From the NCBI GenBank assembly GCA_963713605.1, contig CAVQMO010000001.1, positions 480,001-544,000 on the forward strand: a stretch of DNA of 64,000 bases, read 5' to 3'. This document shows positions 4,234-39,713 of this stretch, in pieces. Every line of letters begins with the position of its first letter. Position 1 is the stretch's first letter. A program made the position numbers and the translations under genes. The stretch is from an uncultured Nitrososphaerales archaeon (lineage in GTDB: Archaea; Thermoproteota; Nitrososphaeria; Nitrososphaerales; Nitrososphaeraceae). Below the pieces are notes generated by a model. It did no database searches, was not told the origin of the DNA, and worked only from the letters and a program-made list of their open reading frames with translations.

Positions 4234-4323
4234 GGGCTCGTAGACTCAGCTTGGATAGAGCGCCTGCCTTCTAAAGCTAGTGAAGAAAGCCGGAAGTCGA
4301 GGGATCGAAGCCCTCCGGGCCCG
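4234..4323 (+). tRNA. tRNA-Arg(TCT) with a 14-nt intron at 37/38 (4274..4287)
   Basis: Acceptor GGGCTCG/CGGGCCC; anticodon TCT 4270-4272; BHB central helix CTTC/GAAG; T arm GAGGG-ATCGAAG-CCCTC. Confidence 0.9.
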
Positions 4324-34099: not shown

Positions 34100-34254
34100 A
34101 ACACCATTTTCAGAGCTATTTATGCTATATCAGTCACATCATAACAAGTCTCGATATGGTGAATACTGAACTTGCAAGTATGGCCACGGATTCAATTATA
34201 TTCGAGCGTTACAGTCAAATATTAGTCCTGGTTTACTAATCCACACAGCTCGGA

Positions 34255-34384
34255 AGCCCGGTCGAGCACGTCGTAAACGTGCGCCGAATCTAGTGGCCAA
34301 ACTTACTTGAGGGCTAGGGATTTCAGGCTCTGGATCTACAAGAAAAGAAACCTGAGGACAGCAGTTCGAATCTGCTCCGGGCTA
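34255..34384 (+). tRNA. tRNA-Gln(CTG) with three introns: 34265..34288 (10/11), 34301..34317 (21/22), 34334..34349 (37/38)
   Basis: Spliced product AGCCCGG TC GTCT AGTGGCCAA GGAT T TCAGG CTCTGGA CCTGA GGAC AGCAG TTCGAAT CTGCT CCGGGCT A folds as a cloverleaf; each junction forms a BHB-type motif. Confidence 0.9.
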
Positions 34385-34393
34385 CTCTTCAAT

Positions 34394-35995
34394 TTACTGT
34401 GTTCTAGGACCCGCCTTAATGATTTCTATCGGCATATTGCCAAATCTCCCGAAGTTTTTGACGAATAGAGAAGCGAGTCTTTTAGCAGATTCCAAATACT
34501 TTTGTTTGTCAGACCATGTGTTGATAGGATCAAGAATATAATCTGGGACCCCAGGGCATGAGATCGGAATCTCCACATTGAATATTTCGTGTCGTCTATA
34601 AGAAACCTTTTCCAAATCACCATTGATTGCAGCTTTCACCATGGACCTAGTGTGTTGAAGGTTCATCCTACGTCCAACCCCATATGGTCCCCCTACCCAA
34701 CCTGTGTTTATCAAATAAACCTTTGAATTATGTTGGGCAATTCTTTTGCCAAGCATGTCCGCGTATACTCTTGGCTTCAACATCATGAACGGTGCGCCAA
34801 AACAATGAGAAAAGGTCTCTTGTGGTTCAGTGATGCCCCTTTCGGTGCCAGCCAACTTACTAGTGTACCCGGACATAAAGTGATACATAGCATGTTCCTT
34901 TGACAATCTTCCGATTGGAGGGAGTACCCCGAACGCATCTGCTGCTAGGAATATAATGACATCTGGATGGTTCCCTAAACTTGGCACAACGGCGTTTGGA
35001 ATGAATTCAATCGGATACGCAACCCGGGTGTTTTCTGTTAGAGACTCGTCATCAAAATTGGGTTCACGACTTTGGTCTAGGATAACATTCTCCATAACCG
35101 ATCCAAACCTTATTGCATTCCATATTTGTGGTTCCTTAGATCTTTGTAAGTTTATACATTTTGCGTAACAACCGCCTTCAAAGTTGAAGATACCATTCTT
35201 TGACCATCCATGTTCATCGTCTCCAATGAGACGTCTCTCTGGATCAGCTGAAAGTGTCGTTTTTCCAGTCCCTGACAAGCCAAAAAATAGGGCCGTCCTT
35301 CCATCACTACCTATGTTCGCGGAGCAATGCATAGGAAAAATATCTTTGAGAGGAAGCAGATAATTCATTGCAGAAAACATTGATTTTTTTATTTCTCCTG
35401 CATAGGACGTAGAGCCAATCAATACAAGGCGCTTCGTGAGATTGAGAATGATGAAGGTTTCACTTTTTGTTCTTTCTACTTCTGGGCGAGCTTGAAAATC
35501 AATTATAGAAAGAATAGTAAATGATGGATGATGAATTAGAAGTTCTGGTGGACTTGGGCGGATGAAAATCTGCATCGCAAACAGATTGTGCCATGCACTA
35601 TCTGTTATTGTCCTGATCGAAAGCCTACTCTCTTTCTCTGCTCCAATGAATCCATCGAACACAAAAGCTTCCTTTCCTTCTAGGGATCTTTTCATCCTAT
35701 CGAATATTCGATCAAATATCTCAGGAGACAATGGGTGATTTATCTTTCCCCAATCAACTGAATCATGTGTCAAGTCATCATCCACAATATATCTGTCATC
35801 AGGAGATCGGCCCGTAAACTTGCCGGTTCTGACCGAAAGAGCCCCGGTTGTAGAGAGTTTCCCTTCACGCCTATGAATAGCAGCTTCAATCAATGATGGA
35901 GGGGGTAGGTTTCTGTGCAGCTTAGAAAAATTGAAACCCGCCTCTTGTAGTTGAACAGAACATCTAAGGTCCGATGCTAATAAGCTGTCATTCAT
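34394..35995 (-). CDS. pckA: PEP carboxykinase (ATP)
   Basis: TGRSPDD, YAGEIKK, GLSGTGKTTLS, LIGDDEHGW, NFEGGCYAK. Confidence 0.97.
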   Translation of the reverse strand: MNDSLLASDLRCSVQLQEAGFNFSKLHRNLPPPSLIEAAIHRREGKLSTTGALSVRTGKFTGRSPDDRYIVDDDLTHDSVDWGKINHPLSPEIFDRIFDRMKRSLEGKEAFVFDGFIGAEKESRLSIRTITDSAWHNLFAMQIFIRPSPPELLIHHPSFTILSIIDFQARPEVERTKSETFIILNLTKRLVLIGSTSYAGEIKKSMFSAMNYLLPLKDIFPMHCSANIGSDGRTALFFGLSGTGKTTLSADPERRLIGDDEHGWSKNGIFNFEGGCYAKCINLQRSKEPQIWNAIRFGSVMENVILDQSREPNFDDESLTENTRVAYPIEFIPNAVVPSLGNHPDVIIFLAADAFGVLPPIGRLSKEHAMYHFMSGYTSKLAGTERGITEPQETFSHCFGAPFMMLKPRVYADMLGKRIAQHNSKVYLINTGWVGGPYGVGRRMNLQHTRSMVKAAINGDLEKVSYRRHEIFNVEIPISCPGVPDYILDPINTWSDKQKYLESAKRLASLFVKNFGRFGNMPIEIIKAGPRTQ

Positions 35996-37093: not shown

Positions 37094-37891
37094 TTACGTA
37101 CCTGTTTCAAAGCCTGGTTCTTTATTCTGGAGTGCTTTTCTTCCAAAAATGAGATAGGTTGTATGACCTATCATTCTCATCGCTGGCCGTGTTTTTCCTG
37201 CCCTGGCCTCGATGCTCCTTATCATCAACTCAGTGGAATCAACGGACACAAACCCGAACTCGGTTAGAGCCGAGGACATTTTTTCGAGTTGATTCATCGT
37301 AGGGCATATTGCAACGAGGGTTCCACTCGGTCTCAGGGATTCATATGTCTTCTCAATCATTGTCCAGGGGTCGCCAATATCAACGACAACTATATCTACC
37401 TCACCACAGTTTGCCTCTTGGAACTGGGTATGATCATGAAACGTTACAAAATCAGACAGGTTTGCCTTCTTGATGTTTTTCTTGGCGATAGCACTAAATT
37501 TTGGATTCACGTCAAACGTATAGACATGCCCAAACGGTCTAACTATACTTGCTAAGTAGGTCGTTAGTCCTCCGCTGCCTGTGCCAACTTCTATGACTTG
37601 TGAACCACTTGTGAGTCCACTCCGAATCCCGATATATGCTAGATCCTTGGGATATACAATTTGAGTTAGCCTTTCTGATTTCATCACGAAATCATACACC
37701 AATGGTTCTAGTAGAATGACTTTCTTTCCTTTAGAAGATAAGATAGGTGAACCAAAGTCAGAGCCTACTGCTTTTCCTATATCGAGCACTCCTAAGTGGG
37801 TGTGGAACTTCTTTCCAGCATTTGCCTCTACCAACCAAGTTTTTTGAGGAGAGTGGTAAAGAAGTACTTACAATCCTTCTTGAATAATCAT
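37094..37891 (-). CDS. trmI: tRNA (adenine-N1)-methyltransferase; in-frame TAA at codon 8 (37868-37870)
   Basis: TQIVYPKD, EVGTGSG, DIGDPW, RPAMRMIGHT; upstream ATG 37891 is in frame. Confidence 0.9.
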
Positions 37892-38318
37892 GGATTAACC
37901 ATCATGTACCGATGATAAAAATTAATCCCATACTCTGAACTAAGCTACCAGCCTGCTAACCAGTGGGGACAAGTACTAATATGCATTGAAATTATTTGAA
38001 TTGCATCTTGGCGTTGTTATATGTATAAGGAAAAGTCCGATTCACGAATTACCTATTTCGGTTCGCGCATTAACGTACTAATGCAACCATACATTCAATT
38101 ACATTGACTGCTTAGTCAACTCGGAAAAATATTTCATAATTAAGCGCCATTTATTGATACCACTTTCTTTAGATCCTCAAGGGGGCTCGAAATGAGTTTA
38201 GTCCATAGTCGTCCGTTCGCTCGGTCCCCGCTTTTTGAATTGGTTGAAACTAGGTTAATTTAAATTTGAGAGGCATTGAAGAGGAAAAGTCCATAATATT
38301 TGGCTTGATATTTAGAAC

Positions 38319-39029
38319 ATGATCTCAGCGAAGGCAGTTTGCATACTTAGTGGTGGACTAGATTCCGTTGTCTCGGCATTCTATGTTAAGCAAGTTTGGA
38401 ATCTAGTGCCATATACGATTACTTTCCACTATGGTCAAAGGTCGACAGAGGAAGAGATGAAGAGAGCACGGTTTTTTGCTACAATGTTGGGGTCTGGAGC
38501 TCATAAGGAAATTGATATAGGCTTCATGAAAGATCTCTACGGCAACGATAACACGCTGACTGGGGAGAATACCATTATTCCGGAAAAATTTCACCAGTCC
38601 ATAGTTGTTCCACACAGAAACTCAATTTTTTTGACGATAGGCTCAGCGTGGGCTGCTAGCCTAAAGATTGGTGTTTTAGTGTATGGAGCACATGCTGACG
38701 ACCAGAATTATCCTGATTGCCGACCAAAGTTCGTAAGCTCTCTTGAAAACATGTTAAATGAATCTGATCTTGACGCTATCAACCTCGGTTTACGAAAGCG
38801 GATCGAAATCTGGTGTCCAGCAAAAGAGAATATCCACAAGAATGAGCTGGTCAAGATAGGGTACGATCTTCTGGGTGATAAGATATTCTATACGTGGAGC
38901 TGTTATTCAGATGCATCACGTAATAGTCTAAGTAAGCCAGTGCACTGTGGGGCGTGCGAATCATGTATCAACAGAAAAACTAGTTTTAGCGAAGCAAATA
39001 TTGCAGATAAAACAGAATATGCTACTTGA
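38319..39029 (+). CDS. queC: 7-cyano-7-deazaguanine synthase
   Basis: SGGLDS, YGQR, VPHRN, YPDCR, TWSCY..CGACESC. Confidence 0.96.
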   Translation: MISAKAVCILSGGLDSVVSAFYVKQVWNLVPYTITFHYGQRSTEEEMKRARFFATMLGSGAHKEIDIGFMKDLYGNDNTLTGENTIIPEKFHQSIVVPHRNSIFLTIGSAWAASLKIGVLVYGAHADDQNYPDCRPKFVSSLENMLNESDLDAINLGLRKRIEIWCPAKENIHKNELVKIGYDLLGDKIFYTWSCYSDASRNSLSKPVHCGACESCINRKTSFSEANIADKTEYAT

Positions 39030-39098
39030 CTAGTCCTCTTAACTAGTATATCCCAATTGTATCGACAGTAAGAATAATATCTGAACAAATGTGTACTT

Positions 39099-39713
39099 GT
39101 GATGGAGTCCCATAGTAAGATATTGTTACAGGAAAAGGAGAAGGGTAGAACCCTAAACAAGAAGAAGATTGAAAAGATTCTGAGAAAACTGTTGATAGAA
39201 TTGGGTGAAAATCCTGACAGAGAAGGCCTAATCGGAACGCCAAGAAGGATGGCAGAGGCATTTGAGGAGATATTTGCCGGTTACACAATGAGTTCCGGAC
39301 TCGATGTGAGTTTCTCGGAGGAAACCGATGCTATAATTGCCAAAGATATTCAATTTTATAGTATGTGTGAGCATCATATGCTCCCCTTTTATGGCAAGGT
39401 TCACATTGCATATTTACCTGAAGGCAAGGTATTTGGCATATCCAAATTAACCCGTCTCGTAGAAAAGTATTCGCGTAGGATGCAAATACAGGAGAGGTTA
39501 ACAAAGCAGATAGCTGATGAAATAACCAAAATGGGGGTTAGAGGGGTCGTCGTCATAGCTGAAGGCGAGCACTTGTGCATGAAAATGAGAGGAGTCAGAA
39601 ATCACAGCCTTGTCGTCACAATGGCACACCGAGGTTTAATGGAACAAAAAGAGCTAAGAGAAAATATTCTTACTCTCATTTCTAATTCAAAGCCAGGTTT
39701 AAGATCTTTCTAA
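39099..39713 (+). CDS. folE: GTP cyclohydrolase I (type IA)
   Basis: REGLIGTPRR, SMCEHH, QIQERLT, HLCMKMRG. Confidence 0.96.
   Translation: MMESHSKILLQEKEKGRTLNKKKIEKILRKLLIELGENPDREGLIGTPRRMAEAFEEIFAGYTMSSGLDVSFSEETDAIIAKDIQFYSMCEHHMLPFYGKVHIAYLPEGKVFGISKLTRLVEKYSRRMQIQERLTKQIADEITKMGVRGVVVIAEGEHLCMKMRGVRNHSLVVTMAHRGLMEQKELRENILTLISNSKPGLRSF

Follow-up and report, generated by a model that had tools for sequence, protein, structure and literature searches.

A leader decoy and a proposed acceptor-strand swap in the maturation of a three-intron tRNA-Gln(CUG) of the Nitrososphaerales

Introduction

The tRNA-Gln(CTG) gene at positions 34255-34384 of the 64,000-nucleotide stretch of Nitrososphaerales DNA analysed here (the window) is interrupted by three BHB-type introns, located at positions 10/11, 21/22 and 37/38. 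The first of them builds its splice motif from bases of the acceptor stem, and its maturation probably relies on a strand swap that is set up by a decoy in the 5' leader. The 5' leaders of tRNAs are generally regarded as sequence to be discarded. In our model, by contrast, the transcript would open with a duplicate of the 5' acceptor strand, and this decoy would capture the 3' acceptor strand, thereby freeing bases 5-8 for the central helix of intron 1. The early helix between these bases and the end of intron 1 would then stay undisplaced, so that EndA could cut. After excision of intron 1, branch migration would return the 3' strand to the true 7-bp stem, and RNase P would subsequently remove the leader.

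Multi-intron and non-canonical BHB tRNA genes are known from the Thermoproteales, and passages in PMC8450103 and PMC11291895 report them for the Thaumarchaeota and for Asgard archaea, respectively. Part of PMC3082918 describes a Caldiarchaeum tRNA-Gln(CUG) with multiple introns, part of a preprint (bioRxiv 10.64898/2026.10.13.758758) mentions Asgard archaeal genes with as many as five insertions, and a section of PMC8450103 presents a dedicated BHB model for the Thaumarchaeota together with 107 non-canonical introns. With such cases in print, the statement in a preliminary description of this DNA that multi-intron tRNAs occur mainly in the Thermoproteales is too narrow. Position 10/11 is absent from the list of intron positions given in part of PMC4090602, which is open-ended ('etc.'), and may be catalogued elsewhere. 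Nitrososphaera Gln genes do not occur among the rows listed of the version-comparison file of PMC8450103; as far as these rows go, both tRNAscan-SE versions therefore call or miss them alike.

Results

Anatomy of the gene and its splice motifs

Every intron boundary of the gene (Table 1) carries the elements of an archaeal BHB motif, comprising a 4-bp central helix, 3-nt bulges and an inner helix, with intron 3 in a relaxed form. Intron 1 has the central helix CGGT/GCCG (4/4 pairs) and a 6-bp inner helix, and intron 2 has GGCC/GGCT (4/4 pairs) and a 3-bp inner helix. Intron 3, with CTCT/AAAG, forms 3/4 central pairs owing to a C34.A mismatch that the preliminary description did not mention, followed by a 3-bp inner helix, and uses the anticodon stem as its outer helix. 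None of the motifs has the strict hBHBh' architecture: introns 1 and 2, with no more than one outer pair, are relaxed HBh' motifs, and intron 3 is mismatched centrally. The exons are contiguous and in the correct order, which distinguishes the gene from split and permuted tRNA genes. When each intron was shuffled 100,000 times, an equally good motif arose at the fixed boundary with frequencies of 2e-5, 1.5e-3 and 6.4e-4 for introns 1, 2 and 3, respectively. A blind procedure, in which BHB segments were removed from candidates across the genome and the products scored as cloverleafs, recovered the same three introns and, together with the sequence itself, upholds the coordinates, helices, bulges and positions that had been proposed for them initially.

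Table 1. Features of the tRNA-Gln(CTG) locus (positions in the window).
Feature	Position	Strand	Remarks
TATA-like element CAAATA	34216..34221	+	predicted transcription start at about 34244-34245
Leader decoy AGCTCGGA	34247..34254	+	near-copy of acceptor bases 1-7; complementary to tRNA bases 65-72
Exon 1	34255..34264	+	tRNA bases 1-10; bases 5-8 (34259-34262) build the central helix of intron 1
Intron 1	34265..34288	+	position 10/11; 24 nt; relaxed HBh'-type motif without outer helix
Exon 2	34289..34300	+	bases 11-21; GGCC at 34295-34298 builds the central helix of intron 2
Intron 2	34301..34317	+	position 21/22; 17 nt
Exon 3	34318..34333	+	bases 22-37; anticodon CTG at 34330-34332
Intron 3	34334..34349	+	canonical position 37/38; 16 nt; C34.A mismatch within the central helix
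Exon 4	34350..34384	+	bases 38-73; 3' acceptor strand 34377-34383; discriminator A73; CCA not encoded
pckA (PEP carboxykinase)	34394..35995	-	convergent neighbour; served only as phylogenetic marker

Removal of all three introns yields a 73-nt tRNA-Gln(ctg) that ARAGORN recognises as a full cloverleaf with an A1-U72 pair. The same length resulted for 115 of 115 parsed CTG orthologues. Among eight spliced and partly spliced forms, ARAGORN called a complete tRNA-Gln(ctg) for the fully spliced one only; the unspliced gene and three partial forms remained uncalled, and three other partial forms were truncated or miscalled. If intron 1 were placed at 8/9 instead, the D-stem pair would be perfect, but there would be no central helix. 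Moreover, intron 1 is missing in 30 of 238 genomes of the family, all from one genus (g14; 30/72), and exon 1 there joins exon 2 exactly at the predicted 10/11 junction. These natural intronless alleles thus fix the 10/11 register independently of folding.

The mismatch in intron 3 (34328-34331/34344-34347) is conserved: 112 of the 115 parsed orthologues have the A, and one has a pairing G. It might slow the cutting of this intron or form a C.A+ pair. The TTG gene was considered as a possible origin of intron 3, whose AAAG would fit CTTT, but the family TTG genes seen lack a 37/38 intron; TTG paralogues read through normally at both 21/22 and 37/38. In addition, the end of intron 2 (GGGCT, 34311-34315) is complementary to bases 1-5 at 34255-34259, which are partly free in the decoy form, and a coupling between introns 1 and 2 is possible.

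A predicted two-subunit EndA

Two EndA-family genes (PF01974 matches) are present in the genome. The product of one (L001) has its best matches among crenarchaeal catalytic subunits (E 3e-44); its alignment with 3p1z_B is gap-free over the specificity loop and places K55-P56-K57 against K44-P45-R46. In the other (L002), the aligned column does not hold the histidine of 1a79_A, which we take to be catalytic, and this protein looks like a structural subunit. The genome thus combines two EndA paralogues with a catalytic subunit that contains the extra loop and its K-P-(K/R) motif, and the broad-specificity EndA that the preliminary description considered necessary is indeed encoded. Residue roles within this loop are outlined in part of PMC12397907. 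The introns are predicted to be cut by an EndA of the (alpha-beta)2 type; sections of PMC4090602 and PMC3218864 attribute an EndA heterotetramer to the Thaumarchaeota, and part of PMC3239211 reports that the heterotetrameric type cuts relaxed HBh' motifs.

Detection and functionality

ARAGORN finds one tRNA in the window and Rfam at gathering score finds two, none of which is this gene, and the expectation that default annotation could miss it is justified for these two programs. Exon-motif searches of the 87%-complete genome detected no second Gln(CTG) gene, and its long ORFs contain 7,407 CAG codons. Of 150 other family genomes, 139 contain a match to the gene; its exons are nearly invariant, and its introns vary yet keep their helices. 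Judged by these features, it is a functional tRNA-Gln(CUG) gene, and we regard it as extremely improbable that it is a pseudogene, or the result of chance insertions, from which no mature tRNA is made. A spliced read was not seen in RNA contigs, as this possibility would predict, but such contigs drop rare forms and are uninformative in this respect; for a family member's locus, four RNA runs gave only unspliced one-piece contigs, which for the same reason cannot report spliced forms reliably and cannot show transcript starts.

Several other features related to tRNAs were noted. A tRNA-Arg(TCT)-like gene at 4234-4323 of the window, missed by ARAGORN and scored at 29.6 bits by Rfam, has an anticodon-loop insertion, an extra D-stem A and an anticodon-stem mismatch. 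In the genome, 15 of the 32 scored tRNA genes (from an inventory covering 104 of 160 candidates) contain introns, several of them being misnamed by ARAGORN, and 15/16 introns are found in the Glu(TTC) and Asp(GTC) genes. A tRNA-Tyr gene was not located in the 87%-complete assembly. The ORFs at 37094-39713, 3-5 kb from the tRNA gene, we take by eye to encode a tRNA m1A58 methyltransferase, QueC and GTP cyclohydrolase I.

Distribution of the three introns

We sampled 110 family loci from 17 genera, with deliberate enrichment for g14, the genus lacking intron 1. The 115 CTG genes parsed comprise 90 family genes with three introns, 15 family genes without intron 1 and 10 genes of a second family with introns 2 and 3 only; 12 rows did not fit the parser, two of them with a mis-set 3' end and ten from the second family. 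The three-intron form is thus the norm in the family (90 of the 105 parsed family CTG genes, in a sample enriched for g14), and the same gene occurs in records titled Nitrosocosmicus, Nitrososphaera and Nitrososphaerales. Exons are almost invariant across the orthologues, and introns differ in length and sequence with their helices retained. All 115 parsed orthologues keep 4/4 pairs in the central helix of intron 2, six of them with double changes to GGTC/GACT, and the central helix of intron 1 has 4/4 pairs in 146 of 148 genes with either anticodon. An intron at 10/11 is also found in the tRNA-Gln of 54 genomes of the second family and in the class of a Bathyarchaeia record. Relatives share the three introns, and the rarity claimed in the preliminary description was overstated. 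Within the class of the Bathyarchaeia record, three tRNA-Gln(CTG) genes (L258, L262, L286) combine the 10/11 intron with insertions at 37/38 and in the T-loop; two of them (L258 and L262) also have an anticodon-stem insertion, apparently making four in one gene.

A copy of the acceptor strand in the leader

As stated in the preliminary description, intron 1 borrows acceptor bases 5-8, and its helix consequently excludes the pairs 5-68, 6-67 and 7-66 at the same time. Not described there is the decoy in the 5' leader, at 34247-34254, which can form a duplex of -13.0 kcal/mol with the 3' acceptor strand. Most other genera of the family have GTAGCTCG as leader decoy, pairing with bases 67-74, and bases 73-74 are covered as well in most family CTG genes. 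The tRNA-Gln(TTG) gene of the same genome (C1:458299-458393, minus strand, outside the window) has one 22-nt intron, at 10/11, and a leader with a perfect tandem copy of bases 1-7. With its single intron, it is the simplest of these substrates for the decoy. The same decoy was recognised by eye at TTG genes across the family, among the matches listed (150 of 364 rows).

The position of the decoy follows the promoter. The decoy starts 21-25 nt after the end of AAATA in 85 family CTG genes, whereas base 1 of these genes follows the element at a distance of 32-44 nt; the latter distance is 26-28 nt in 15 genes without the intron. In one genus (g11), a perfect GTAGCCCG decoy lies 96-106 nt upstream in four of five genes, the contig of the fifth ending too early, and all four have an AATA element 22-23 nt ahead of the decoy, as if the decoy had moved about 100 nt upstream along with the promoter. 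Since its distance follows the promoter rather than base 1, these arrangements suggest that the decoy opens the transcript. The leaders of g11 would then be unusually long; in the four loci (L040, L051, L084, L110), about 100 nt of low-complexity, TGCA/TATG-rich sequence separate the decoy from base 1. A promoter scan with models for bacterial, not archaeal, promoters returned no match.

The decoy and the 10/11 intron occur together

A leader duplex was scored as strong at -12 kcal/mol or below, computed for the last 25 upstream bases against bases 64-76, with the cut-off chosen after the data had been seen. Among 271 parsed tRNA-Gln genes, which come from related genomes and are not independent events, 139 of the 148 that carry the 10/11 intron have a strong duplex, as opposed to 4 of the 123 that lack it. 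Of the nine misses, five are g11 genes, two are rows that were mis-parsed although the motif is present, and two have shorter decoys. Dropping G035, G077, G099, G280 and G773 together with the two mis-parsed rows changes the counts to 137/142 and 4/122. The four long-spacer cases include G077, the 30 intronless alleles include G392, and G280, G772 and G773 contribute three of the 54 true rows of the second family; none of our claims rests on these genomes by themselves. In that family, the intron pattern matched in 56 of 301 genomes; of the 56 rows, 54 represent true tRNA genes, each of which has a decoy, weaker in three of them. For the class of the Bathyarchaeia record, 34 of 301 genomes matched, a lower bound given that the pattern missed the centre genome itself, and 36 of 40 rows are true genes, each with a decoy (36/36); an initial, tighter class-wide intron pattern had matched 24 of 201 genomes. 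Decoy letters facing G68, G69 and G70 are only C or U, with mismatches in at most 2 of 139 cases, and opposite C67 and C71 the decoy has G in 137 of 139 cases; co-variation at the variable base 65 is weak.

The intronless alleles provide the complementary picture. All 30 have a changed leader, with the decoy lost in 27 (short GGTY end) and shortened in three (GTAGC only). A pckA tree of 28 rows, which is based on this single gene, with one genome lacking a match and one paralogue left out, implies that the intron state changed three times, with well-supported branches requiring at least two of these changes, and places six intron-plus-decoy genomes in one clade with five intronless ones. Intron and decoy have therefore changed together more than once, which may reflect repeated loss, or loss followed by regain. 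A strong complement without the intron was observed in four leaders (L240, L204, L187, L143). The first of these is a perfect tandem copy, which may reflect recent intron loss or another need, and the leaders of L204 and L187 are able to fold on themselves.

As a control, we scored 32 tRNA genes of the genome, of which only the two Gln genes and Ala(TGC) reached -12 kcal/mol. The Ala(TGC) leader duplex (-14.0 kcal/mol in this genome) is not conserved beyond the genus, as judged by comparison across 54 genomes, and an upstream match of tRNA-Val(GAC) sits directly behind a TATA-like box; both were discarded. A search of this genome for other isotypes with an intron after bases 8-13 found none, returning two tRNA matches, both Gln, and two chance matches.

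Folding energies

Because minimum-free-energy folding fails to recover the cloverleaf even of the mature tRNA, explicit conformers were compared. With all three motifs drawn, the precursor of this gene has -33.6 kcal/mol with the native stem and -35.8 kcal/mol with decoy and intron 1 BHB, whereas the fully spliced form favours the native stem (-24.3 vs -21.9 kcal/mol). Across 137 distinct precursors, decoy plus BHB lies below the native stem in 128. The BHB without the decoy does so in none (0/137), with a median of +7.5 kcal/mol, or +3.8 kcal/mol when pairs 1-4 are kept. After removal of intron 1, the native stem wins in 126 of the 137 comparisons. In these calculations, the energies fit a strand-swap switch.

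In free ensembles, the median probability of the intron 1 helix for CTG genes is 0.155 with the decoy, 0.044 with shuffled leaders and 0.0015 without a leader (0.26 with the decoy for this gene). For TTG genes, it rises from 0.005 to 0.90 with the decoy, shuffled leaders giving 0.012. Return of the native stem after removal of intron 1 is not predicted by free folding (median 0.24 for CTG, 0.04 for TTG), and it would need tertiary folding and irreversible cleavage by RNase P.

Discussion

Our analysis identifies a real three-intron tRNA of a known kind, which is ordinary for its family. Its 10/11 intron is accompanied by a conserved leader decoy, a feature well supported by gene comparison and without a match in the literature searched. 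Pairing of the decoy with the 3' strand would likely open the acceptor stem for intron 1. The refolding envisaged in the preliminary description holds in that this stem must open, but a fixed order among the introns is not supported: the three motifs use disjoint bases and fit one evaluated structure (-35.8 kcal/mol), so that no order is forced. It is also at odds with relatives that have introns 2 and 3 without intron 1, or intron 1 alone. A path in which each removal refolds the next motif could invoke a passage in the tRNAscan-SE 2.0 paper (PMC8450103), according to which some close introns need prior removal before the next BHB forms, as well as the potential of GGGCT at the end of intron 2 to pair with freed bases 1-5 and a mismatch that might delay the cutting of intron 3; we nevertheless consider it rather improbable.

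The co-occurrence of intron and leader would equally be explained if the leader paired with the 3' strand but served to tether the 10-nt exon 1 until ligation, or to gate RNase P and 3' processing until removal of intron 1, with EndA capturing the BHB unaided. Such a role would suit a decoy that extends over bases 73-74 in most family CTG genes and stays competitive after splicing, both in free folding and in 11 of 137 explicit comparisons. However, forming the BHB without the decoy costs at least 3.2 kcal/mol in 137 of 137 precursors, and the true bases 1-7 could themselves tether exon 1 after cleavage, which makes this reading unlikely. Still less do we expect the upstream copy to act at the DNA level, as an initiator element or as the scar of an intron-bringing duplication, without a role in RNA folding. 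Its location at the predicted start site and its resemblance to the 5' end of intronless relatives, suggestive of an origin by tandem duplication, would agree with this idea. Yet the copies of CTG and TTG genes differ in sequence and always complement the 3' strand, with changes that keep pairing; the copy is kept over spacers of 0-106 nt and across two classes, and the genome's other tRNA leaders lack it.

The gene shares many properties with known multi-intron archaeal tRNAs, namely the 3-4-3 cut geometry, relaxed HBh' motifs, three introns in one gene, the combination of D-loop and canonical positions and a host with two EndA subunits. It differs from them in that the helix at 10/11 is built from the acceptor strand, for which the leader would substitute. 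Among largely open-access literature, including parts of PMC4033280, PMC3293823, PMC2724299 and PMC4390854, we found no paper on a leader replacing an acceptor strand. A flanking leader is likewise needed for a splice-competent fold in the split and permuted tRNAs of Nanoarchaeum equitans, Caldivirga maquilingensis and Cyanidioschyzon merolae, as described in sections of PMC4090602 and PMC3218864. There, however, the leaders pair mutually and form part of the BHB, whereas the decoy lies outside the BHB and would pair with mature tRNA sequence, in cis on a contiguous gene. Part of PMC4090602, referring to Sugahara 2008, mentions a 3/4 acceptor-stem intron in certain Thermoproteales, whose splice motif conflicts with the acceptor stem as that of the 10/11 intron does. 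Its geometry implies that the central helix would use leader bases directly, as opposed to the use of bases 5-8 at 10/11, where the leader would stand in for them.

It is tempting to generalise the decoy model: a short duplicate of the tRNA 5' end, located where the transcript starts, would serve as a cis-acting surrogate acceptor strand and strand-exchange chaperone. Intron and leader would then be gained, retained and lost together across Nitrososphaeria and Bathyarchaeia, with RNA folding alone setting the order of splicing and RNase P cleavage. We lean slightly towards this broader reading, under which intron positions just behind the acceptor stem would become tolerable. Cultured members of the family exist, and nature provides alleles with and without intron and leader. 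Essential tRNA genes of these abundant soil ammonia oxidisers are missed by ARAGORN and Rfam. If a leader indeed stands in for the acceptor strand, this would explain how an intron persists where its splice motif competes with the tRNA fold; archaeal tRNA maturation would gain a folding switch, with a bearing on the fixation of non-canonical introns.
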